A stretch of DNA of 64,000 nucleotides from Candidatus Micrarchaeia archaeon. GTDB taxonomy: Archaea; Micrarchaeota; Micrarchaeia; Anstonellales; J096. Position 1 is the stretch's first letter, and every line of letters begins with the position of its first letter. Below the pieces are notes generated by a model. The model was not told the origin of the DNA. It made no database searches and saw only the letters and a program-made list of their open reading frames with translations. Of this stretch, positions 10,726 to 53,718 are shown in pieces. Made by a program: the position numbers and the translations under genes. The stretch covers positions 10,079 to 74,078 of the forward strand of contig JBGQMY010000004.1 of the NCBI GenBank assembly GCA_041500865.1. Reading direction: 5' to 3'.

Positions 10726-11202
10726 ATGGAGCAGCGGCATAAGGAAAGGAGCCAAAAACCAAAGCTGCGCGAGCGCACAAGGCAGGTGCTGGCATCGGCT
10801 GCGCGGTCAATAAAGAGGGCGTTTGCCGGAAGAAGACTTGACAATGCGTTCTTCAGGGCCGTGCGGAATGGCGACAACGCGGAGATAAGGCGGCTCATAA
10901 AGGCCGGAGCCGACATCGCCGCAAAGGGCGATTTTGGCTGGACAGCCCTGCACTATGCCGCAAACAACGGACATGTCCAAACCTGCGCCCTGTTAACAAG
11001 AGAATACGCGAAAGCCGGCGGAGACATAAAAGAGCTAATCGCCATAACGGATGCTTTTGGCTGGACAGCCCTGCGCCGTGCCACAAAATGGAGATATGCC
11101 CAAATCGCGCAGTTATTCAAATCCATGCCGCTATTGCAAGGCTGGGTTGGGAAGGAAACGTTCAGCTCGTTCATGGAATCGTTCGGGGAATGTGTTTCCT
11201 AA
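10726..11202 (+). CDS. Ankyrin-repeat protein (FxxxFxxC-tail family)
   Basis: GWTALHYAANNGH; C-terminus FMESFGECVS. Confidence 0.9.
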   Translation: MEQRHKERSQKPKLRERTRQVLASAARSIKRAFAGRRLDNAFFRAVRNGDNAEIRRLIKAGADIAAKGDFGWTALHYAANNGHVQTCALLTREYAKAGGDIKELIAITDAFGWTALRRATKWRYAQIAQLFKSMPLLQGWVGKETFSSFMESFGECVS

Positions 11203-16163: not shown

Positions 16164-17384
16164 TCACCCTACCTCTTCCAGCTCAAGCTCGTCAAGCTCG
16201 ACCGGCTTCAGCGTCATGTCCTGTGCAGGGAACTTGACCCCCGCAAGCACGACCAGCACCTTGAGCGCCGACTTCTTCATCTCCTTCTCTATCCTTGCGC
16301 CGAACTTTATGAGCACGTCCGGAGAAACCCTTTTTGCCGTTTCCTCCACGATATACTGCACTTCCTTGAGCGAGAGGTCCTCTCCGCCGGTTATGTTAAT
16401 CAGTACCCTGTTGGCGGATGAGATGTCCACGTCAAGCAAAGGCGAGCTTAGCGCAGTCTCTATAGCTATCCTCGCCCTCTCTTCCCTGGGCACGTCAACA
16501 TTCGCCTCCCCGACGCCTATGACCGCATACCCGCCGTCCTTCAGCGCGGTGCTGAGGTCCGCGAAGTCAACATTGACCAGGCCTTCCTTTGTGACAAGGT
16601 CGCTTATGCCCTTGACCGAGCCCGCAAGCACCTCGTCGCAAACCCTGAAAGCAGTGTTCAGCGGCAGGTCAGGAGCTATGGTGAGCAGCTTGTCGTTCTT
16701 TATTATTATCAGCGTGTCCACGCTCCTCCTGAGCTTGTCCAGGCCCTGCAGCGCATTCTGGTATTTGACCTTCCCTTCTGACGTGAACGGAAGCGTGACT
16801 ATGCCTATGGTGAGCGCCTTTGTCTCGCTCTTCGCCATCTTTGCCATGACAGGCAGCGAGCCTGTTCCCGTTCCCCCTCCCATCCCGCACGTGAGGAACA
16901 GCAGGCTGGCGTCCTTTATGGACTCCTTTATGACTTCTATGGTCTCCTGCGCCGCCTTCTCGCCGCATTCAGGGCTGCTTCCGCATCCCCTCCCCCTTGT
17001 CAGCTGCTTGCCAAGCAGTATCTTCCTGTTCGCCTTTATCTTCAGCAGATGCCTGGCGTCGGTGTTTGACGCTATGAGCGATATGCCCGTAACGTTCATC
17101 TCGTGGAGCCTGTTCAGCGTGTTGCATCCGCTTCCCCCTGCCCCTATGACGAATATCTTCGGCTCGCTTTCCTCTATGAACTTGAGTATGTCCTCCTCGT
17201 CGTCGCTCGCGCTGGCCGTCATCCCCTCCGCAACTTCCGCGGCGCTGTATTTCTCTTCCTGCGCTGGCATAGGTGCTGTGATGGCTGGCGCCGGCGTTGC
17301 AGGGGCTGGGGCCTGCGGCGCAGCGTTCTGCGCTGGCTCTTTAAGCATCTCCTCAGGCTGGGGCTTTGTCTCCTCTCCTTCCAT
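16164..17384 (-). CDS. ftsZ: Cell division protein FtsZ
   Basis: GAGGSGCN, NTD, GMGGGTGTG, NVDFAD; acidic Pro/Ala-rich N-terminal extension. Confidence 0.97.
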   Translation of the reverse strand: MEGEETKPQPEEMLKEPAQNAAPQAPAPATPAPAITAPMPAQEEKYSAAEVAEGMTASASDDEEDILKFIEESEPKIFVIGAGGSGCNTLNRLHEMNVTGISLIASNTDARHLLKIKANRKILLGKQLTRGRGCGSSPECGEKAAQETIEVIKESIKDASLLFLTCGMGGGTGTGSLPVMAKMAKSETKALTIGIVTLPFTSEGKVKYQNALQGLDKLRRSVDTLIIIKNDKLLTIAPDLPLNTAFRVCDEVLAGSVKGISDLVTKEGLVNVDFADLSTALKDGGYAVIGVGEANVDVPREERARIAIETALSSPLLDVDISSANRVLINITGGEDLSLKEVQYIVEETAKRVSPDVLIKFGARIEKEMKKSALKVLVVLAGVKFPAQDMTLKPVELDELELEEVG

Positions 17385-17499: not shown

Positions 17500-17790
17500 T
17501 CACCTCTTCTTCTTGCCTTTCTTCTTCGCTGCCTTTTTCTTTCCCCTCTTTCTCTTCCTCTTGGCGCCTTTCCTGCCGCCCCTGTTCATCTTCGCCTTGT
17601 ACACATATCCGTCGTTCCCGACGTAATACAGATATCCGGCCTGCTTGCTCACCTTGGCGCTGCCCACCTTCTTCTTCCTTCCGCCGGTGTTGTGCTTCAT
17701 GGGTACGGCCCAGACGCATCCGTCGCTTCCTACGAAGTAGAGATATCCCTTTTCCCTACTTATCTTTTCATTTCCTATTTTTTCTGCCAT
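17500..17790 (-). CDS. Small basic protein with duplicated GYLY[FY]VGxDG repeat and Lys/Arg tail
   Basis: 96 aa from MAEK; GGGGTG RBS-like sequence upstream and oligo-T tract downstream. Confidence 0.8.
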   Translation of the reverse strand: MAEKIGNEKISREKGYLYFVGSDGCVWAVPMKHNTGGRKKKVGSAKVSKQAGYLYYVGNDGYVYKAKMNRGGRKGAKRKRKRGKKKAAKKKGKKKR

Positions 17791-17945
17791 TTTGTATACA
17801 CCCCTAATTTTTCTTCTGTTCGCATTTTGCGTTCCCCTCTTTTTAAACTTTGTCCCCGTCAACCCGACAATCCTACGAATACAGTTGTTTTTAGTGTTGG
17901 TAGCTCGTTGTTTTACGTCGGTTTTCGGTTTTTTTAACGTCGATC

Positions 17946-18033: not shown

Positions 18034-18060
18034 CTGATTTTTAATCCTTTGCCGCACAAT
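18034..18060 (+). promoter_or_regulatory. Ankyrin-cassette promoter motif (CTGATTTTTAATCCTTTGCCGCACAAT)
   Basis: Related motifs precede the ankyrin genes at 18565, 19218, 20010, 20439, 22371 and 49674. Confidence 0.7.
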
Positions 18061-18066
18061 GGAATC

Positions 18067-18540
18067 ATGCTGCAGAAAAGAACTCCGGTATTTTCGCCGT
18101 TCCTGCACAAGCAGAAGAGCCTGTCCTTAAGGGCTAGGGAGCGCATAGGCGTCTTTTTCTGGGAATTCGGGCGCTATCTGCAGGACCGCTACGGCACGTT
18201 CAACAGCGACCTCCTTGAGGCAGCGGACCATGGGTATGTCGGCGCAGTTAAAGTAACATTGAAGAAAAAGGAGGTCAATATAAACACGCGGGACAAGTAC
18301 GGCAACACTCCGCTGATTCTTGCGGTCCAGGAAAACAACATCAAAGTAGTTAAAGTGCTGATTGGGAACGGGGCGGATGTTTTCCTGAAGAACAAAAACG
18401 GCGTGAGCGCACTGTCGCTTGCGTCCAGCCGCAAGCGCGCAGAGATAGCCGCTCTTCTTGTTGGGTTTTATTTGGAGAGCGTCCTTGCAGACGGCGCCAA
18501 GCCGTTTTACCATCTATTTAGAGACTGCACCGCCGCCTGA
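18067..18540 (+). CDS. Ankyrin-repeat protein
   Basis: GNTPLILAV, GADV, GVSALSLA; C-terminus FYHLFRDCTAA. Confidence 0.9.
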   Translation: MLQKRTPVFSPFLHKQKSLSLRARERIGVFFWEFGRYLQDRYGTFNSDLLEAADHGYVGAVKVTLKKKEVNINTRDKYGNTPLILAVQENNIKVVKVLIGNGADVFLKNKNGVSALSLASSRKRAEIAALLVGFYLESVLADGAKPFYHLFRDCTAA

Positions 18541-18564
18541 TTTATAACACCTTTGCCATATAAA

Positions 18565-19137
18565 ATGACTATGCAAAAGCAGGAGCCGTTGCTGAAAAGA
18601 ATCCTCAGGAAGCTAAGGCCAGCCAAGCAAAATCCCCTGCCCAGCGAGAAGCGGTATCTTTCAGCTGTAGACCAATATCTGGCAGACAGCAGGCTGATGC
18701 GTGCCGCAGGAGGAGGCGACATAAGCGAGGCTAGGCGCCTGCTGAAGAAAGGCGCGAACGTAGATGCGAACATAGTTAAGCCTGACCATGATTACATGAC
18801 TCCGCTCATGTTTGCCGCACAGAATGGCCACACTGAAATTTGCGCGCTCCTTCTCGAAAATGGCGCAAACATCGAGGCTGTGGATGACGTCGGCAGGACC
18901 GCGCTCGTGATTGCTGCATGGTGGTGCCATCTGGAAATATGCAAGCTTTTGATTGAAAAGGGCGCAAGCATGGCCACAGCAACCAACGGCATAAATTTAT
19001 TTTCATATACCCATGCCGAAAACAAAAAAGAAAAAATCGAATTTTTGTCAGGGCTCATGATAGGAAGGATGGCTGGCAAGGAAGCCGCCACGGCCTTTCT
19101 TTCGGATTTCAAAGAGTGCACAGCCCCTTTCTTTTAG
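18565..19137 (+). CDS. Ankyrin-repeat protein
   Basis: TPLMFAAQNGH, GRTALVIAA; C-terminus FLSDFKECTAPFF. Confidence 0.9.
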   Translation: MTMQKQEPLLKRILRKLRPAKQNPLPSEKRYLSAVDQYLADSRLMRAAGGGDISEARRLLKKGANVDANIVKPDHDYMTPLMFAAQNGHTEICALLLENGANIEAVDDVGRTALVIAAWWCHLEICKLLIEKGASMATATNGINLFSYTHAENKKEKIEFLSGLMIGRMAGKEAATAFLSDFKECTAPFF

Positions 19138-19180
19138 AAAAAGAAAGCTGCTGCGGAAAGAAAACTACTTTAGGCGCTGC
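19127..19180. repeat. Short intergenic element, copy 2
   Basis: CTTTCTTTT-aga-AAAAGAAAG inverted repeat plus the identical 19-mer at 19162-19180. Confidence 0.75.
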
Positions 19181-19217
19181 GCGCTATTTTTAACACCTTT
19201 GCCGCACCAATCATATA

Positions 19218-19964
19218 ATGGAAAAGCGCAAATGCGGCACCAATGGGGCATTTTCAAAAGCCAAAAAAAAGCCGTTCAGAAGGATTGCGGAAAGGCTCAA
19301 GGAGACAGGCAAAAGGATAACGTCACGCTTGCTGAAGCTTGAATCAGACCCCCCTGATATACTATTCAAGATAATGGAGACCAAAAACACGAAGCTGATA
19401 GAGGCTGCAGTTGACAGAGACACCGCAAAGATGAAAAAGCTGATAAAGAAAGGAGCTTGCGTCAATACTATGATAGAACTTGGCAAGGTGTCAGCCCCGC
19501 TCATCCATTACTGCGCCATCAATGACGCCTATCCGCAATTGTCTCTCCTGCTGGAGAACGGCGCAGACCCGTACACAAGGGACGCGCGCGGCATGACGGC
19601 ACTCATGCACGCCGCGGGGCACAGCAGTTATAACATATGCTGCGCGCTGATTGCAGACATGCTGACAAAAGGGAAAGACATAAACGCGACTGACAACGAG
19701 GGCATGACGGCGCTGATGCACGCGGCGACGCACGCAGAGAATGACGTATGCGCGCTGTTCCTGTTGCATGGCGCAGCAGACCCGTATGCCAAGGCCAAGG
19801 ACGGCAGGACAGCCTATATCTTTGCAGGGAACAGCATGACCAGGAAGGCAATCGCGCGCAACGCCCTTGGCCCTGCCTTGGCAAGCCCCTTTTTGGAACA
19901 GATGCTCGGCAAACAGCCAGTCTCTTTCAGGGCCAATTTCCTGATGTGCATCGGCAAGGGCTGA
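19218..19964 (+). CDS. Ankyrin-repeat protein
   Basis: GMTALMHAA twice, GADP; C-terminus FRANFLMCIGKG. Confidence 0.9.
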   Translation: MEKRKCGTNGAFSKAKKKPFRRIAERLKETGKRITSRLLKLESDPPDILFKIMETKNTKLIEAAVDRDTAKMKKLIKKGACVNTMIELGKVSAPLIHYCAINDAYPQLSLLLENGADPYTRDARGMTALMHAAGHSSYNICCALIADMLTKGKDINATDNEGMTALMHAATHAENDVCALFLLHGAADPYAKAKDGRTAYIFAGNSMTRKAIARNALGPALASPFLEQMLGKQPVSFRANFLMCIGKG

Positions 19965-20009
19965 GATGAAAAAGCCCTGATTTTTAATTGTTTGCCATAT
20001 GATGAGATC

Positions 20010-20408
20010 ATGGCGTTGAGCGGGGTCGAGTTTCTGATTGCAATGGACAGGGCGGACAACCCGTCCATGCGCATTCCATTCAGGAAAGGCACGGAGAGAT
20101 ACAAGCGCATAATGGAATTCTCGGACACCATCATCCGCGAAAGGAGGCAAAGCCAGCTGGACCAGGATTTCCTGTACATGATGGAATTGGGCAACGTCAA
20201 GGAGGCGGAAAGGCTGTTCTGGAAAGGAGCGGACGTCAACGCAAGGCAGGACGACGACCTTGCCTGGGGCGCAGGAGCATGGGCTGCCGACAGGAAGGGG
20301 GCAGATGCGATGCTCAATAGGATAACGCGCCTGCAAAGCCTGAGGTTCCTTGGAAAAAACGTTTCGTTGCAGTTTTACCGTTCATTCAGGAAATGCCTCG
20401 CCACTTAA
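20010..20408 (+). CDS. Degenerate ankyrin-repeat protein (FxxxFxxC-tail family)
   Basis: GNVKEAERLFWKGADVNAR; C-terminus FYRSFRKCLAT; cassette promoter upstream. Confidence 0.7.
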   Translation: MALSGVEFLIAMDRADNPSMRIPFRKGTERYKRIMEFSDTIIRERRQSQLDQDFLYMMELGNVKEAERLFWKGADVNARQDDDLAWGAGAWAADRKGADAMLNRITRLQSLRFLGKNVSLQFYRSFRKCLAT

Positions 20409-20438
20409 TTTATAATGCCTTTGCCGCACAATAAAGAT

Positions 20439-21179
20439 ATGCGGAAAAGGCAGCTCCAAAGGGATGCACTGGCAGGGAAAACGGCCAAACCAAAAGCAGA
20501 CATCGCGAAAAGCGAGAATCCTGCATTGTCCGAAACGGAGCAGGGGCGGCTCAATGGCGAACTCCTCCGCATTGTAGACGATAGCTTCAAGGCTGACGCT
20601 AAAAAAGCGGAAGAGGTAGAGCGGCTCGTCAACGCAGGCGCGGACATCACAGCAAAGACGCCTGCCAACTGGACAATCCTGCACTGCGCCGCAGCCTATG
20701 GCGACATCGAAACCTGCGCATTGATTATAGGGAAATACGCGGAATCGCACAGAAGCATAAAGGATCTGATTGGCGCAAAGGCGAATGGCGATGATACGGC
20801 CCTGAAAGAGGCCGCAGTCAATGGACATGCCAAAGCCTGCGCATTGCTTATCAGGGAATACGCAAAAGCAGGCGGTGACGCAACTGAACTTATCACCGCA
20901 AAGGACGAATACGGCCAAACAGTCCTGCATAAAGCCGCGAACATCGGAAACACTGATATCTGCATTCTCCTTATGGAGGAATACGCAAAAGCAGGCGGTG
21001 ACGCAACGGACCTCATCTATGCAGAGGACTACAAAGGCAAGATACCCGTGCAGTCTGCTGTAAAATGGGGACAAACCAAAACCAAGCAGTTCCTTGAGTC
21101 ACTCGAAAAGCTTGGAGCAGCCATGGGGAACAAAACATTCAATTCGTTCATGAAATCCTTCAGCGAGTGCATCGCCTGA
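20439..21179 (+). CDS. Ankyrin-repeat protein with 41-aa extended repeats
   Basis: TILHCAA, TVLHKAA, EYAKAGGD twice; C-terminus FMKSFSECIA. Confidence 0.9.
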   Translation: MRKRQLQRDALAGKTAKPKADIAKSENPALSETEQGRLNGELLRIVDDSFKADAKKAEEVERLVNAGADITAKTPANWTILHCAAAYGDIETCALIIGKYAESHRSIKDLIGAKANGDDTALKEAAVNGHAKACALLIREYAKAGGDATELITAKDEYGQTVLHKAANIGNTDICILLMEEYAKAGGDATDLIYAEDYKGKIPVQSAVKWGQTKTKQFLESLEKLGAAMGNKTFNSFMKSFSECIA

Positions 21180-21230
21180 CTTTAGGCACAACCGACATAT
21201 TTTTAAATCATTTACCACAATTGGAAAAGC

Positions 21231-21794
21231 ATGGGCAAAACCACGAAAATGCTGCTTGCGGAAATCAAAAGCGAAGGCAAAAGGCCAAATAAGATATTAT
21301 TGGTGGACATCCTGCCGACCTCGGGCCCCAGATGGCACCAGAAGGTGCTGGAGCACCTTAATAATGCTTTAGTGGAGGCGTTGGAGCACCAAAGGAAGGA
21401 AAAATACAGTTCAAATTATTTCAGGAAATACAATCCAAGCTATTTCAAGCGGCTGTTGCTGGCGGGCGCAAGCCCGAACGCAAAAAGCACTAGCGGCGGC
21501 GGCACCAGGGCCCTGCAATATGCCGTGGAGTCCGGAGACATCAAAATCTGCGAGCTGCTGGTTGAAAACGGCGCAAACCCCAACCTGAAGGACAATATTG
21601 GGCTGACTTCGCTGCATAGTGCCGTATACCATAAGAAAACCAAAATATGCAAGATTCTGGTTGAAAACGGCGCAGACGTGGACGCAAAGGACAAGAACGG
21701 CGAAACGCCTCTGGAAATGGCCAAACGGCACAAACACACTGACATCGTAAAGATTCTCAAAGCCGCAAGGGCGAAAAAGGCAGGCAGCACATGA
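21231..21794 (+). CDS. Ankyrin-repeat protein (no Cys tail)
   Basis: GANPNLKDNIGLTSLHSAV, GETPLEMA; paralog of the next gene. Confidence 0.9.
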   Translation: MGKTTKMLLAEIKSEGKRPNKILLVDILPTSGPRWHQKVLEHLNNALVEALEHQRKEKYSSNYFRKYNPSYFKRLLLAGASPNAKSTSGGGTRALQYAVESGDIKICELLVENGANPNLKDNIGLTSLHSAVYHKKTKICKILVENGADVDAKDKNGETPLEMAKRHKHTDIVKILKAARAKKAGST

Positions 21795-22306
21795 ACAAAA
21801 ACGCAGGGTTGTTCGCTGAAACCAAAAAAGGCGGGGACAGGAGACAAAACAAGATGGCGGCAGACATCCTGCCAAGCGAAATGTTCAAATGGCATCCCAA
21901 GGTGCAGGCGCACCTCAACGATGCGCTGCTGGACGCATTTGAAACGGCAAGGGAAAAGGAATACGGCCTGAATTATTTCAAGAGGATTCTGCTGGCAGGC
22001 GCAAACCCGAATGCAAAAAACATGAGCGGGCAAAGGCCCCTGGGCCATGCCGCAAAGGCAGGAAACATTCAGCTCTGCGCGCTTCTTTTGAAGAATGGCG
22101 CAAACCCCAACCTGAAGGACAACCTTGGATTCAGGCCTTTGCATTGGGCGGCATTCTGCAACAGGCCCAACGTCTGCGCCCTGCTTCTGGTGTCAGGCGC
22201 GGATGCCGATGCGACGGACAACGCAGGCGATACGCCCATGGACGTAGCAAAGCGGCGAGGCCATGCCACAATCATGGAGATTCTGAAGGCCGCAAAGAAA
22301 AACTGA
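21791..22306 (+). CDS. Ankyrin-repeat protein (no Cys tail)
   Basis: GANPNLKDNLGFRPLHWAA, GDTPMDVA; ATGA overlap with the previous gene. Confidence 0.9.
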   Translation: MNKNAGLFAETKKGGDRRQNKMAADILPSEMFKWHPKVQAHLNDALLDAFETAREKEYGLNYFKRILLAGANPNAKNMSGQRPLGHAAKAGNIQLCALLLKNGANPNLKDNLGFRPLHWAAFCNRPNVCALLLVSGADADATDNAGDTPMDVAKRRGHATIMEILKAAKKN

Positions 22307-22370
22307 ATTTTCCTGTAGTTGAATTGCGCTTCGGTGCCTAATTTATAATATCCTTGCTGCACAATAAAGC

Positions 22371-22817
22371 ATGCAGGAAAGGAAGCAAGGAAAAATAGGG
22401 CAGGCATTCGCCAAGTCAAAAAATACAAAAAGGCACGTCAGCAAAAAAGAGCTGGAATATCTCAGCAAGGCGCTTCTCGACGCCGTATGGTATGAAAACA
22501 AAGCAGGTATAGTGCGGCTCATAAGGAAAGGGGCTGACATAACTGCAAAGTACGGTGAATTTAGGGAGACCCCTTTGCAAAGCGCCGCAGGGGACGGATA
22601 CACCAGTGTCTGCGCCCTGCTGATATCGGAATGCATAAATTCAGGCAAAGACATAATCAGATTCATCAACTCAAAAGACAAAGACGGCGACACAGCAATG
22701 AAACTTGCCGCAAAGAAGGGGCATGTTCAAACCGTGGACTTCTTCAAATCAATCAAATGGCTTGCGTATGCAACCGGAAGCGAATTCATGAAATCCTTCA
22801 GCAAGTGCATCGCCTAG
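22371..22817 (+). CDS. Ankyrin-repeat protein
   Basis: ETPLQSAA, GDTAMKLAAKKGH; C-terminus FMKSFSKCIA. Confidence 0.9.
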   Translation: MQERKQGKIGQAFAKSKNTKRHVSKKELEYLSKALLDAVWYENKAGIVRLIRKGADITAKYGEFRETPLQSAAGDGYTSVCALLISECINSGKDIIRFINSKDKDGDTAMKLAAKKGHVQTVDFFKSIKWLAYATGSEFMKSFSKCIA

Positions 22818-49578: not shown

Positions 49579-49673
49579 ACGGAACGTTGGCAAAGGACAA
49601 TTTTTAAACCATTAAGTTCAATTATTGAACTTACCTGATCTGATTTTTAATATCTTTGGCGCATAACAAAGGC

Positions 49674-50309
49674 ATGCAGGAAAAGAGTAAACCCAAAGAG
49701 AATGCGCCAACAGGTAAATTGGCATCAAAAATGGACATCAAGCCAAGTGAGAAGCATATATTATCTAAACAAAGGCAGGATTGGCTCAATAATAAGCTTA
49801 TCGATGCCGCAAAACGGGGCTATGATGACAAGTTAATCCGGCTCATCAAAAAAGGCGCAAACGTCAACGCCAAGGACAATGACGAACTGACAGCGCTTAT
49901 GCATGCCGCAAGGGTCGGGAGCATAGAAACCTGCAAAATTCTCATTGAGCATAAAGCAAAAATTGATATGAGGAACAGGAATGGCGATACAGCGCTTATT
50001 CATGCTGCATTAAACGGAGAGACTGAAATCTGTGAACTCCTGCTTGAGCATAAAGCCAATATTGATGCAAAAGACACTGATGGCATAACAGTGCTTATGC
50101 ATGCCGCAAGGGGCGGGAGCATTGAAACCTGTAAATTCCTGCTTGAGCATAATGCCTATATTGGGGTAAAGTCCAAAGACGGAAAAACAGCATTCATGTG
50201 GGCTATATGGCATCAACACGAAGAAACAGCAAAATTCCTGAAGCTTTATTCTATAAAAAAGATTCTGGGCAAGGCATTTCTTTCCAGATTTGACGAATGC
50301 ATCGCCTAA
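49674..50309 (+). CDS. Ankyrin-repeat protein
   Basis: TALMHAA, GDTALIHAA; C-terminus FLSRFDECIA. Confidence 0.92.
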   Translation: MQEKSKPKENAPTGKLASKMDIKPSEKHILSKQRQDWLNNKLIDAAKRGYDDKLIRLIKKGANVNAKDNDELTALMHAARVGSIETCKILIEHKAKIDMRNRNGDTALIHAALNGETEICELLLEHKANIDAKDTDGITVLMHAARGGSIETCKFLLEHNAYIGVKSKDGKTAFMWAIWHQHEETAKFLKLYSIKKILGKAFLSRFDECIA

Positions 50310-50314
50310 TTGTT

Positions 50315-52444
50315 CTACCTGGCCCCGCCGCCTCCTCCGCCGTGGCCGCCGCCCCCGAAACCGCCGCCGCCAAACCCGCCATGGCCTCCGTGGGAAGGGG
50401 ACATCGCCATCGCATGGGAGTTTACGGCATAAAAGCCGATTGCGGCGAACCGCGTTGTCCGGTTAAGGGAAAGGTATGCGGAATCCGACATCTCCTTGCC
50501 GTATTGCCTCATCTGGGATATCGCCTTTTCTGCAACGCCGAGCGCGGTCGCGTACACAAGCCAGTTTTTCCACATCAGGATTTCCTCCTTGCCGTACTTC
50601 TGTATCATGCCGTAATTGGAAAGCAGGTTGGAGAATGCGTCCCATTTTTTCTTTTCTATTATCATTTCATGGGTGTATTTCCCGAAAAGGTATTCGCCGA
50701 ACGCTATAATCATTACAAGCAACGCAGAAAGGAAGACCATCAGGGGAAGCATCACGTCCCATGAGTATGCGGAGGCTGCGCCACCGAAAAGCCATATTGA
50801 AGCAAGCAGCGAGCCTGAAACGAACGCCTTTGCTGCGTCGTAGCCCTTCTGGTCAAATGCCGATTCTGCGAGCCTTTTTGCGCAAGTCCCGGTGTTTTTG
50901 GCATTTGGGTAGTCGGAAACCTTGCTGAAGTCAGATGCGAAAACTGCGGCAAGGGACCTGTTTGCAGTAAGGTTGGGCTTCACGGCCTGCGCATCAAATA
51001 CGCACTGGCCGTTCTGGCTTTTTGTGCCATATGAAGAAAGTAGGTTAACGACGTTGGTTTCATACTCGTCAAGGGCCTGGCCTTCCGGGACGCCATTGTA
51101 GATTATCTTGTTTTCGCTTTCTATCTTGATTATGCCCCTTGACTCAAGGTCCATCAGCGTTGCATAAAGCGCGTTGCTGTCCATCCTGTCAGGGGTCCCG
51201 ACAAACAAAAGGTTGACTTCCCACGGTTTCCGTTTCTCATTGGGTACGGTGTGCAGCGTGTCTATGTCAAAAGGCACAGCGTCCTCCTTGCCGAACCTTT
51301 CATACAATAGGAAAAGGGCTGCTATGAAGCCAATTGCGAGCAATGACAGGACTATTATCCTGTAGTCAAAAACCGCCTTGTCCAGCGAGGCCGCAAGCCT
51401 GGTCCTGTCAAAATCCGGCTTTATGGCGTAATTGACGTCCTTGTAGCTGGAAAGGTAGCCTGGATTGGAAAGAAGAGCCCTGACGCTGAACGGCACCTGC
51501 GGGCCCATTGCACCCATCTCAACCGAATTGCCGGATATGCTGCCATACGGATATGTAAACAGCTCCTGTATCGCGGATTTTGACGTGTTGTTGATAAACG
51601 TCACGCGCATCCTGTCCACATTCAGGCCGAAGGCATCTGATATGACGTAGTTCGGGTCAGCGAAATCGGTGCCTTTTTCATAAGGCCTTGATATGGAATA
51701 GGCAAACCTTACGTCGTAATCCCCGGCAGGTATGCCATTGTCGTCCCTGCATACGTATTCCACATAATCGCCATAGTCGTTCTGGATGAAACGGAAGCCG
51801 TAGGGGCATGACTCGGACTGGAGCGAGACTGCGGACTGGCTGTCCTTGTTTACAGATATGTAAAGCTCGTGGAATTGCCCGCCGCCTGACACGGCGTAAT
51901 GCAGCGTCCTGTCTATAATAATTGAGTCATCATAAAGGGAAACTGTCACGTCCTGGAATGATACCGAGACGCCCCCTGATACGGCGCCAATGGCCTGTTT
52001 CGCTAAGTATGTGCCGCCAAGGGCAAGCAGGACGACAATGACTATCACTGCAAAGACCTTTGCCTCGCTCGTTTCCCTGTTAAGGAAGGAGGAGTGGAGT
52101 TTTGACTGCATTATCCCTCCGATGAAAACGACCGCAAGGAATGCCCAATACTCCGGAGGGACTATGGCAATCAGCCCTGAAAAGAGCAGAACCATGAACA
52201 ATGCCGCTATGGCGCCTATTGCCCAGCCGATGATCTTGAGCGAAGACAGGTTGCAGTATGCGAAAAATCCGGCTGTTATGAAGGCCAGCTTGAGCAGGAC
52301 TGAGAAAAGGCCGTATGAGGAAAAAATGAAGTCAATGGCCAAGGAGGATACGGCAACGAAGCCTATGAACAAAACAAGGAGGATTGCCTCAAGAAGCCAG
52401 TTTGTCTCAGGCTTCAGGGGCAAAAAAACCACGTCTTCTGCCAT
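50315..52444 (-). CDS. DUF2207-type membrane protein
   Basis: ATLMDL..RG.I, W.AF, W..WLVYATALGV, Gly-rich C-terminus; downstream of lemA. Confidence 0.85.
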   Translation of the reverse strand: MAEDVVFLPLKPETNWLLEAILLVLFIGFVAVSSLAIDFIFSSYGLFSVLLKLAFITAGFFAYCNLSSLKIIGWAIGAIAALFMVLLFSGLIAIVPPEYWAFLAVVFIGGIMQSKLHSSFLNRETSEAKVFAVIVIVVLLALGGTYLAKQAIGAVSGGVSVSFQDVTVSLYDDSIIIDRTLHYAVSGGGQFHELYISVNKDSQSAVSLQSESCPYGFRFIQNDYGDYVEYVCRDDNGIPAGDYDVRFAYSISRPYEKGTDFADPNYVISDAFGLNVDRMRVTFINNTSKSAIQELFTYPYGSISGNSVEMGAMGPQVPFSVRALLSNPGYLSSYKDVNYAIKPDFDRTRLAASLDKAVFDYRIIVLSLLAIGFIAALFLLYERFGKEDAVPFDIDTLHTVPNEKRKPWEVNLLFVGTPDRMDSNALYATLMDLESRGIIKIESENKIIYNGVPEGQALDEYETNVVNLLSSYGTKSQNGQCVFDAQAVKPNLTANRSLAAVFASDFSKVSDYPNAKNTGTCAKRLAESAFDQKGYDAAKAFVSGSLLASIWLFGGAASAYSWDVMLPLMVFLSALLVMIIAFGEYLFGKYTHEMIIEKKKWDAFSNLLSNYGMIQKYGKEEILMWKNWLVYATALGVAEKAISQMRQYGKEMSDSAYLSLNRTTRFAAIGFYAVNSHAMAMSPSHGGHGGFGGGGFGGGGHGGGGGGAR

Positions 52445-52457
52445 GCAGGTCAGATGC

Positions 52458-53033
52458 CTATTCAAACACTGTCGTGTCCACCCTGCCCTTTATCTCGGCC
52501 TCAAACTCAAGATAGCCCCTTTTGGCAAAGCCGAGCACCATTGCGTAGATGTTGGTCGGGAACTGCTCTACCGTGATGTTGTACTTCTGGACCTGGTCGT
52601 TGTAGAGGTAGCGGATGCGCGCAATCTCGTCCTCTATGTCCTTTACGGAGTGCTGGAGCTCAATGACGGTTTCGTTCCCCTTTAACACCGGATAGTTCTC
52701 AACAGCAACGTTTATGGCCCCAAGGATGGATTTTGCGAAGGCGTCGGCCTGCTGCGCCTGCTCAGGCGTCGTGAACTTCATTGACCTGTACTTGGTTATC
52801 TGCTCAAACGTGGACTTTTCGAACTTCAGGTAGCTTTTTGCAGACTGCACCAGCTCGTACAGCATGTCAAACCTCTTTTTCATTGCCACGTTTATCTGGT
52901 TGAACGTGCCCTCTATGCCGTTTTTCATGGCAACCAGCCTGTTGTATATCGGTATCGCCGAAAGGACGACAAGGATGACAACGATAATCGCTACTGCAAC
53001 TATTGCAAGCAATGCCAGTGTAAATATGTCCAT
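52458..53033 (-). CDS. lemA: LemA family protein
   Basis: YNRLV, KRFD, FEK, ENYP.LK, YND.V..YN, FPTN. Confidence 0.93.
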   Translation of the reverse strand: MDIFTLALLAIVAVAIIVVILVVLSAIPIYNRLVAMKNGIEGTFNQINVAMKKRFDMLYELVQSAKSYLKFEKSTFEQITKYRSMKFTTPEQAQQADAFAKSILGAINVAVENYPVLKGNETVIELQHSVKDIEDEIARIRYLYNDQVQKYNITVEQFPTNIYAMVLGFAKRGYLEFEAEIKGRVDTTVFE

Positions 53034-53118: not shown

Positions 53119-53718
53119 ATGCAGAAAAGTAAGCGGCTCCCAAGGAATGCACAGGCAAAGGAACCGATTAAGTTCAAGGCTAGCATCATGCCAAGCGGGA
53201 AGCTGGCATTATCGGCAGAAGAGCAGAGTAGACTCAACGATGAGCTTTTTGCCAACGCATTAAATGGTAACAATGCCAATGTGACGCGGTTCCTCAAAGC
53301 AGGCGCAGACATCAAAGCAAAGGGCAATGATGGCCAGACAGTCCTGCACTATGCCGCATGCTTTGGACACACGGACGTTTGCGCACTGCTTATACAGGAA
53401 TACGCAAAAGCCGACGGAGATGTAAAGCAGCTTATAACCGCAAAGGACACGGAAGGCCTGACAGTCCTGCATTATGCCGCAGCCAATATCGACACCAGAA
53501 CCTGCGCACTGCTGATAAAGGAATACGCAAAAGCAGGTGGGGATATAAAGGGAATAATCAAAGCAAAGAACAATGCAGGCGAGACAGCCCATGGTTTTGC
53601 CGTAACTTGGCAACACCCTCAAACCGCACGGTTCCTTCTCGAATCCGGGGTTCGTGCGCTCATCGGAAAGGAATGCGGGAAACTATTCGTCTCGTTGTTC
53701 AGGGAATGCATAGGCTAG
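53119..53718 (+). CDS. Ankyrin-repeat protein with 41-aa extended repeats
   Basis: TVLHYAA twice, EYAKA[DG]GD twice; C-terminus FVSLFRECIG. Confidence 0.92.
   Translation: MQKSKRLPRNAQAKEPIKFKASIMPSGKLALSAEEQSRLNDELFANALNGNNANVTRFLKAGADIKAKGNDGQTVLHYAACFGHTDVCALLIQEYAKADGDVKQLITAKDTEGLTVLHYAAANIDTRTCALLIKEYAKAGGDIKGIIKAKNNAGETAHGFAVTWQHPQTARFLLESGVRALIGKECGKLFVSLFRECIG

Follow-up and report, generated by a model that had tools for sequence, protein, structure and literature searches.

What function could be served by a constant C-terminus on proteins whose repeats diverge? This question is raised by a stretch of 64,000 nucleotides from contig JBGQMY010000004.1 of a Candidatus Micrarchaeia archaeon (assembly GCA_041500865.1), referred to as the window in the following, in which eight open reading frames (ORFs) lie in tandem on the + strand at 18049-22817. 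The array is flanked by ftsZ (16164-17384, -) on one side and by the ribosomal protein L3 operon (22887 onward) on the other side. A preliminary description of this locus had read all eight, together with three single genes, as ankyrin (ANK) genes with divergent repeats, nine of these eleven ending in a common motif, F-x3-F-x2-C. The tandem arrangement was confirmed, and seven of the eight ORFs showed Pfam ANK matches, while the 20010 gene did not. Nine of the eleven genes under consideration indeed end in the motif, comprising six of the eight array genes and the single genes at 10726, 49674 and 53119, and the terminal peptides quoted for them are exact. The genes with the motif belong to a hugely amplified family that is restricted to the genus and whose products are small ANK-repeat proteins with this tail, made in the cytoplasm. 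The tail is under strong purifying selection and, judged from the sequences compared, it is an integral though unnamed terminal part of a single protein family and not a mobile tag.

The extent of the family was determined in the whole assembly, which comprises 1,043,478 bases on 36 contigs and is 92% complete. Among its 8,082 ORFs of at least 60 amino acids, 93 end in F-x3-F-x2-C plus one to six terminal residues, compared to a mean of 5.05 and a maximum of 9 in 20 composition-preserving shuffles. Six non-ANK ORFs (C2:3553, C3:6744, C13:5089, C13:15918, C30:2179 and C34:3101) were removed from this set on the grounds that they contain no match to the ANK regular expression, are of odd composition and look like chance matches. 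The resulting 87 family genes account for 54,144 nt, or 5.2% of the assembly, are spread over 21 of the 36 contigs and encode proteins with a median length of 197 amino acids (range 42-378). Since several further copies are cut at contig ends or carry extra residues past the motif, the true family size is larger than 87. A profile of the tail was found at 78 places in the DNA of the genome, and the Ank_2 profile at 107 places or more.

In the two other genomes of the genus, the tail profile matched at 24 and 30 places. It matched at no place in 38 genomes of 20 other genera from the same family and order, and an even sample of 400 genomes of the phylum gave true matches in the sister species only. 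Altogether, three of three genomes of the genus have the tail, and it was not found in any of the other genomes of the phylum, about 436 in number. Eight other genomes of the phylum showed weak matches of 16.9-19.7 bits, which mostly cover only the repeat part of the profile, and the two that were inspected are unrelated genes. The expansion of Ank_2 itself extends beyond the genus, with 71 matches in a genome of another genus of the family (G008) and 33 and 22 matches in two genomes of the order.

A comparison of the tail with the remainder of the proteins showed a strongly uneven conservation. In the 84 hmmsearch alignments that cover the tail, the first F is found in 84, the second F in 82 and the C in 83 rows, while buried columns of the ANK outer helices in the same proteins vary between C (40), A (37), V (12) and M (6), or between F (66), L (40), I (4), M (4) and Y (2). 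In 80 database relatives, F at -7 from the Cys is kept in 79 and F at -3 in 77; this set was selected by a Cys-bearing tail and thus does not measure the conservation of the Cys. At the level of DNA, no two of the 87 tail cores (27 nt each) are the same, their median identity being 0.59, and the codons are mixed: TTC and TTT occur 67 and 20 times for one F and 69 and 18 times for the other, GAA and GAG 27 and 25 times, and TGC and TGT 83 and 4 times (325 and 34 times family-wide). Since the tail cores are all distinct and synonymous codons are mixed, the conservation acts at the amino-acid level and not at the level of DNA.

The bodies of the proteins diverge fast. While the identity of ribosomal protein L3 amounts to 87% with the sister species G002, to 71% with the sister species G001 and to 47% with G008, the best match of the protein encoded at 20439 amounts to 40% in G002 and 43% in G001. 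For ten family genes at six loci of the sister genomes, the best matches among the 87 lie between 36% and 48%, and within the genome the nearest paralog is at a median of 46% identity (range 29-95%). The picture of a variable binder joined to a constant tail, as proposed in the preliminary description, was therefore supported by the comparison of 36-48% for the bodies with 71-87% for L3 and by the near-fixation of F, F and C.

The architecture of the proteins was read from full-length alignments of 29 and of 40 members. Behind a basic leader follow one to about eight ANK repeats per protein, which are of the standard or of a long-loop type (EYAKAGGD..ELI), and then the tail of 26 residues. In the tail, the outer helix of the last repeat runs on (FLKSME.L....) without the usual Gly-Ala break. 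A Gly, which had been reported to precede the motif in most cases, was found at the hinge column of the profile in 67 of 81 aligned rows and at exactly -14 from the Cys in 43 of 87 genes. The terminal element is a short amphipathic helix of the form F-[LMI]-x-[SA]-F-x-[ED]-C-[IV]-[AGS]-x(0-3). In terms of single positions, F(-7) is followed by L, M or I at -6, by S, K or A at -5, by S at -4 (S in 42 of 87), by F(-3), by R, G or S at -2 and by E or D at -1 (67 of 87), while the Cys at 0 is followed by I or V at +1 (67 of 87) and by A, G or S at +2 (75 of 87; A 36, G 21, S 18). The positions -10, -7, -6, -3, 0 and +1 form one hydrophobic face of the helix. The number of residues after the Cys is not constant: among the 93 ORFs it is one in 1, two in 20, three in 55, four in 11 and five in 6 cases, and 52 of the 80 database relatives have exactly three. 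In the six tail-bearing array genes, two to five residues follow.

Structure predictions with AlphaFold 2 (AF2), using family alignments, gave confident ANK folds with a mean predicted local distance difference test score (pLDDT) of 87 and 90. In the model of the short-linker protein encoded at 22371, a single straight helix (residues 119-147) passes through the tail, with pLDDT values of 73 and 69 in the last two blocks. The model of the long-linker protein encoded at 10726 shows a helix at 125-141, a break at G142 and a second helix at 143-157, with pLDDT values of 95, 90 and 79. A structural alignment to 997 PDB chains yielded designed ankyrin repeat proteins (DARPins) at Z values of 14-15.5 and a root-mean-square deviation of about 1 Å. 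All 50 of the DARPin alignments listed stop at model residue 135-140, even where the DARPin continues, and the tail corresponds to residues 136-158. Judged from where these alignments stop, the tail probably does not occupy the place of a repeat or of a cap. A Foldseek search against the PDB returned DARPins and ANK proteins only. The tail was also considered as a degenerate ANK half-repeat, with 14 instead of 16 residues from Gly to Cys; this was rejected, as ANK proteins never match the profile positions 21-46.

For 10 of the 11 ANK genes of the window, and for 16 of 18 tail proteins scanned, Pfam ANK matches lie above the gathering cut-off (PF12796, PF00023, PF13637 clan). When 26 family proteins were compared to Pfam with E limits of 0.01 or 0.001, ANK families only were returned, and PRANC (PF09372), F-box (PF00646) and SOCS box had no match in these 26. 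NCBIfam and PADLOC showed only far sub-threshold matches on the repeats and none on the tail; for the Dot/Icm Ank equivalogs of NCBIfam, which have cut-offs of 450-1400 bits, the best value was 56.7 bits, again on repeats only. When the tail profile was compared to PDB sequences, ANK proteins matched the first 20 positions only, which represent the last real repeat. The earlier remark that the tail is not a named domain thus holds for Pfam, NCBIfam, PADLOC and PDB, all of which leave it uncovered.

Against 1.84 billion representative proteins, the tail profile gave 1,017 matches at E up to 0.001. Among the best 150 of these 1,017, giant ANK proteins match positions 1-20 only, and about half are small proteins with an end-to-end match at the C-terminus. 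Sixty of these small end-to-end matches were inspected, and all of them have the same leaders, ANK repeats and tail; in total, 80 of 157 retrieved database proteins are of the family type. Protein-database searches with the tail region and with the tail alignment, for which the index is strict for the motif, returned 2 and 10 proteins, all of them with ANK or without Pfam match. In the ESM Atlas, the best match to a tail query (0.94) was a cluster of 28-residue hypothetical proteins without family, which are probably fragments of the same tails, while all other matches were below 0.9. On non-ANK proteins, the tail was found neither in the genome nor in the databases searched: 16 of the 18 proteins scanned showed ANK only and two showed nothing, and all 80 database proteins look like the family. 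The term modular, which had been applied to the system, is therefore not supported. Since the tail was never found on a non-ANK protein, it has been inherited together with the ANK scaffold and was not shuffled. The literature searched, which included few subscription journals, contained no ANK expansion or motif in Micrarchaeota or DPANN, and a prior description elsewhere is possible. According to one article on DPANN archaea, Undinarchaeota have no ANK proteins (PMC7414124). In a survey from 2014, 15 of 133 archaeal strains were found to encode ANK proteins, and only four species had more than one (PMC3932732).

Regarding the role of the tail, we tentatively prefer docking, at a confidence slightly short of an even chance: variable ANK binders would carry one constant docking helix for a shared putative partner. 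The ANK groove would be the variable, target-binding part and the tail helix the constant handle, with F, F and C at i, i+4 and i+7 on one face. This face would insert into a hydrophobic groove on a single partner common to all members, either the archaeon's own or that of a host, so that about 90 different binders would serve the same machine. Since the Cys is invariant, the contact may depend on thiol chemistry or on a very tight fit. Docking is preferred because the tail residues are far more fixed than the core residues that pack on the family's variable repeats, because the i, i+4, i+7 face resembles known helix-in-groove contacts, and because amplified ANK families of other host-dependent organisms carry a constant C-terminal docking box. 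The helix of p53 that binds MDM2 is an example of such an i, i+4, i+7 triad. Furthermore, the ANK stack does not need the tail, since tail-less ANK paralogs exist (21231 and 21791). Several points weigh against docking. The shared partner of the tail is a hypothetical one. Since the tail occurs on ANK proteins only, common descent together with a structural role could explain it, and the pLDDT values of 95, 90 and 79 in the long-linker model are as expected for a helix packed on its own domain. Moreover, the Cys need not indicate chemistry, because it is an ordinary buried repeat residue in this family (TCALL). The main rival explanation, which we regard as possible but less likely than docking, takes the tail for a purely structural cap: together with the F-x3-F-x2-C helix, the extended last helix would form a hairpin that folds back over the hydrophobic end of the ANK stack, with F, F, C and I/V as core residues of a family-specific C-cap. 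Besides the exclusive occurrence with ANK, the common burial of Cys in the repeats and the helix-Gly break-helix course of the long-linker model at the high pLDDT values given above, this would agree with the single hydrophobic face formed by the conserved residues at -10, -7, -6, -3, 0 and +1 and with the variable length after the Cys, because of which the free C-terminus is probably not read. However, the core columns of the repeats interchange C/A/V/M and F/L/I/M while F, F and C of the tail do not, and a cap that packs on a variable repeat should co-vary with this repeat. The tail-less paralogs stop right after their last repeat, in the DARPin alignments listed the tail coincides neither with a following repeat nor with a cap, and the short-linker model shows a straight and less confident helix (pLDDT 73 and 69).

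The same Cys could also be the target of a modification, with CaaX-like or other C-terminal lipidation or a thiol-linked signal tethering the binders to a membrane of the archaeon or of its host; this we consider improbable. It would account for the near-invariance of the Cys (83 of 84) and for its position in front of [IVLT]-[AGS]-[AGQS] and the end of the protein, exactly three residues being present in 55 of 93 ORFs and in 52 of 80 database proteins. In addition, the genome contains a gene for a membrane methyltransferase of the ICMT family (C6, +; PF04140, 44.4 bits), a homologue of which is found within the taxonomic family only in the tail-bearing genus (three of three versus none of 16 genomes). 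On the other hand, 8 of 22 further genomes from the order, all without the tail, likewise contain an ICMT homologue, and 38 of the 93 ORFs have one, two, four or five residues after the Cys. The a2 position is A, G or S in 75 of 87 genes and thus not aliphatic. Prenyltransferase beta (PF00432) and alpha (PF01239) and a Rce1-like protease (PF02517) were not found in the 92%-complete genome, whereas the M48 peptidase that is present (PF01435, 125 bits) is ubiquitous. The variable length after the Cys contradicts a strict CaaX site, and the prenyltransferase genes not found in this genome speak against it as well. It appears equally hard to favor a transfer signal, which is quite unlikely in our estimation and according to which the tail, or the tail together with the basic leader, would mark the proteins for export or for hand-over to a host cell. 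Substrates of bacterial type I and type IV secretion carry C-terminal signals, and the family has no Sec/Tat-type signal peptide and yet the look of a symbiont effector repertoire, with extremely fast evolving bodies and a leader that is the more mobile module and is shared by a bicupin protein (27 of 62 identities, E 6e-5). But no secretion machinery is linked to the family, no sign was found that its proteins leave the cell, and known C-terminal secretion signals are loosely defined and do not consist of three invariant residues. That the ends have no function at all and are kept alike by gene conversion or recent duplication of paralogs is very improbable. The tandem arrays, the promoter DNA common to the family and the contigs that break inside family genes in several cases would fit this explanation, while the 87 tail cores that all differ in DNA at a median identity of 0.59, the mixed synonymous codons, the median of 46% to the nearest paralog and the retention of the motif in three species and 80 database relatives contradict it. 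A further reading combines several of these elements and is, in our view, rather unlikely: the tail could act as an address label in an archaeal effector system, where it would be recognised and perhaps modified at the Cys by thiol chemistry or lipidation, with the ICMT homologue involved, and would direct about 90 rapidly diversifying ANK binders from the archaeon onto or into a host.

Compared to known systems, the family is of a known kind, that of amplified ANK families in host-dependent microbes whose C-terminal element is constant, while the defining features of the PRANC/F-box, SOCS and CaaX families were not found in it. PRANC or F-box elements stand at the C-terminus of amplified ANK families in poxviruses, Orientia and Wolbachia. 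Like the present family, these are large and fast-evolving and combine variable repeats with one constant C-terminal element. In contrast to the helix of F-x3-F-x2-C, whose constant part comprises 12-26 residues, PRANC and F-box are folded Skp1 binders of 40-50 residues, and to our knowledge the likely partners of this archaeon have no SCF ligases. ASB proteins consist of ANK repeats and a SOCS box with the BC-box L-x3-C-x3-[AILV]. They share with the present family the order of ANK repeats and C-terminal amphipathic helix and a Cys on the docking face, but the BC-box has Leu at -4 from the Cys, where S, A, D or P is found here (S in 42 of 87), and no SOCS-box match was obtained. The ANK effector AnkB of Legionella carries a C-terminal CaaX and uses host farnesylation. 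Effectors of this type and the present family likewise end in Cys plus a few small or aliphatic residues behind ANK repeats, whereas here exactly three residues follow the Cys in only about 60%, a2 is A, G or S, and no prenyltransferase was found. DARPins and natural C-capping repeats are, like the tail, helical elements that end an ANK stack; the tail was never aligned to the DARPin cap (50 of 50 rows), and in the profile searches ANK proteins left it unmatched.

A further analogy is offered by the related genus G008, whose ANK family has a conserved C-terminal helical module with a hydrophobic-x3-hydrophobic-x2-Cys pattern (L-x-h-x-L-x-[EN]-C), found in 7 of 19 complete ANK ORFs retrieved. 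Unlike the present tail, this module comprises about 45 residues and continues for 15-20 residues past the Cys. Its profile matches at 30 places in G008 and at none in the present genus, and the profile of the present tail has no match in G008. Homology of the two tails was not supported, since hhalign aligned only the ANK part, at a probability of 24.8.

At the other end of the proteins, the leader comprises 30-45 basic residues with a median net charge of +5 over the first 30 residues (n=87). In a simple run count, no signal peptide or transmembrane helix was apparent, as the longest hydrophobic run within the first 45 residues was at most 7 in all 87 proteins; a basic leader without a hydrophobic signal peptide, as initially described, was thereby confirmed. 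Several subtypes can be distinguished: MQERK.LQ.N.QAK.P.K.KADI.PSE, MEQRQKE..KPK.LRERTRQ.LASAA.S, MAQRL.ESK and MEKRK.K.REAFAKAK. In the AF2 model of the 10726 protein, part of the leader forms a long helix that is continuous with the N-cap (residues 14-48, pLDDT 71-88). A family-type leader, MEQRR...VLVSAARSI, was also found on a bicupin gene (C13:22697-23536, +; Cupin_2, 98 bits) behind the promoter cassette of the family, and this is the leader that aligns with the 10726 protein as given above. Since cassette and leader also head this non-ANK bicupin, the leader is more mobile than the tail. A relatives search with one family protein gave two matches in Oscillospiraceae genomes, which cover leader residues 23-50 only and were rejected as chance matches.

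The promoter cassette precedes the ATG at a fixed spacing in 10 of the 11 ANK genes of the window. Its TATA-like box (ATTTTTAA or ATTTATAA) is separated by 3-4 bases from a variant of TTTGCCGCACAAT, and about 6 further bases lead to the ATG. With at most one mismatch, the 13-mer TTTGCCGCACAAT has 35 matches genome-wide, compared to one for the reversed control. With at most two mismatches, it was found at 29 of the 87 family genes and ends 5-7 bases before the start codon in 28 of these 29; of the 77 matches in the genome at this threshold, 30 lead into tail-bearing ORFs and most others into truncated ANK genes. At three mismatches, 24 matches in the window stand against 28.7 expected and are thus not above chance, so that the signal resides in the matches with at most two mismatches at the fixed spacing. 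Diverged versions of the cassette are present in the sister species, with 9 versus 2 matches in G002 and 2 versus 0 in G001. The distance from the TATA box to the ATG is about 27 bases. At archaeal promoter spacing, a TATA box this close to the ATG implies leaderless mRNA, and leaderless mRNAs are therefore predicted for the family. In tandem pairs, the intergenic space of 30 bases is made up of the cassette alone (18541-18570 and 20409-20438), so that no base lies between the stop codon (TGA or TAA) of the upstream gene and the TATA-like box of the downstream gene. It follows that termination and initiation signals overlap, or that the arrays are also read through. The common promoter element suggests that the whole family may be switched together. 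A copy of the cassette is also present at a gene for a presenilin/signal-peptide-peptidase homologue (C9:18696-19571, -; PF06550, 48.7 bits), in which the YD, GTGD and PAL motifs are visible and which lies directly downstream of two family genes.

Based on the cassettes, the starts of the array genes were refined to 18067, 18571, 19218, 20010, 20439, 21231, 21791 and 22371. The position 18034, from which the array had been said to start, is that of the first promoter, whose cassette (18037..18060) consists of the TATA-like ATTTTTAA, 3 bases, the exact 13-mer TTTGCCGCACAAT, 6 bases and the ATG of the first gene. This gene (18067..18540, all array genes on the + strand) encodes an ANK protein of 157 residues that ends in FYHLFRDCTAA. 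The second (18571..19137, 188 residues) begins 30 bases, which are occupied by the cassette, after the stop of the first and has the tail end FLSDFKECTAPFF. The third (19218..19964, 248 residues, tail end FRANFLMCIGKG) is preceded by a 13-mer with two mismatches at 19198..19210. The fourth gene (20010..20408, 132 residues) contains the remnant of one repeat and aligns with the family over the leader, this remnant and the tail. As previously stated, it is nearly repeat-less and has kept the tail, FYRSFRKCLAT, and it has no Pfam ANK match. An exact 13-mer (20420..20432) precedes the fifth gene (20439..21179), which encodes an ANK protein of 246 residues with long-loop repeats and the tail end FMKSFSECIA. 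Both the sixth and the seventh gene are tail-less, stop after the last repeat and are of a different ANK subtype. The sixth (21231..21794, 187 residues) has a diverged copy of the cassette; the seventh (21791..22306, ANK, 171 residues) overlaps with its start the stop of the sixth and has a relative at the same place in a sister species. The eighth gene (22371..22817, ANK, 148 residues), with a 13-mer at two mismatches (22353..22365), carries the short-linker tail end FMKSFSKCIA and is absent at the same place in G002.

Just upstream of L3, G002 contains one tail-bearing gene and one tail-less ANK gene in syntenic position (G002:C21:12500-15940), and behind the tail-less gene, about 600 bases of different sequence take the place of the 22371 gene, which represents a gene gain or loss within the array. 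Since the array is syntenic in G002 but differs in gene content, it is old and in place while its content is turning over. DNA of the array was present in four sediment metagenome runs, while no RNA data set was listed for it. In three runs, which belong to three studies and one of which is possibly the source, long contigs contain the array without differences. Between ftsZ and the array lies a Lys/Arg-rich ORF of 120 residues (17500-17862, -) with two copies of GYLY(F/Y)VG(S/N)DG and a poly-basic C-terminus.

The three single family genes of the window are likewise ANK genes on the + strand. The first (10726..11202, 158 residues) has a cassette upstream, a leader beginning with MEQRHKERSQ... 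and a tail at 11122-11199 that ends in FMESFGECVS. The second (49674..50309, 211 residues) ends in FLSRFDECIA and is preceded by a 13-mer with three mismatches at the same spacing (49655..49667), and the third (53119..53718, 199 residues) ends in FVSLFRECIG. Between the latter two, a non-ANK ORF of 80 residues (50467-50709, +), which overlaps the ORF at 50315-52465 (-), shows FSFLLSFHGC within its last 25 residues; this match to the motif is probably due to chance.

For the biology of the archaeon, the scale of the family is unusual, as roughly every tenth gene of this archaeal genome of 1 Mb encodes an ANK binder. Its design is easily recognised by a common promoter element, a leader type, a hypervariable body and an invariant three-residue tail, and it offers experimental handles in the form of a 12-residue peptide, one Cys and a 13-base putative operator. 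Since the related genus G008 has an analogous family with a different Cys-bearing tail, the combination of ANK repeats with a lineage-specific constant tail may recur in these archaea. Neither an effector repertoire nor a targeting signal with which DPANN archaea might manipulate their hosts is known to us. If the reading as an address label were true, the tail would represent the first signal for effector targeting to be recognised in a symbiosis between archaea. Even if the tail is only a cap, the family represents a striking lineage-specific expansion.

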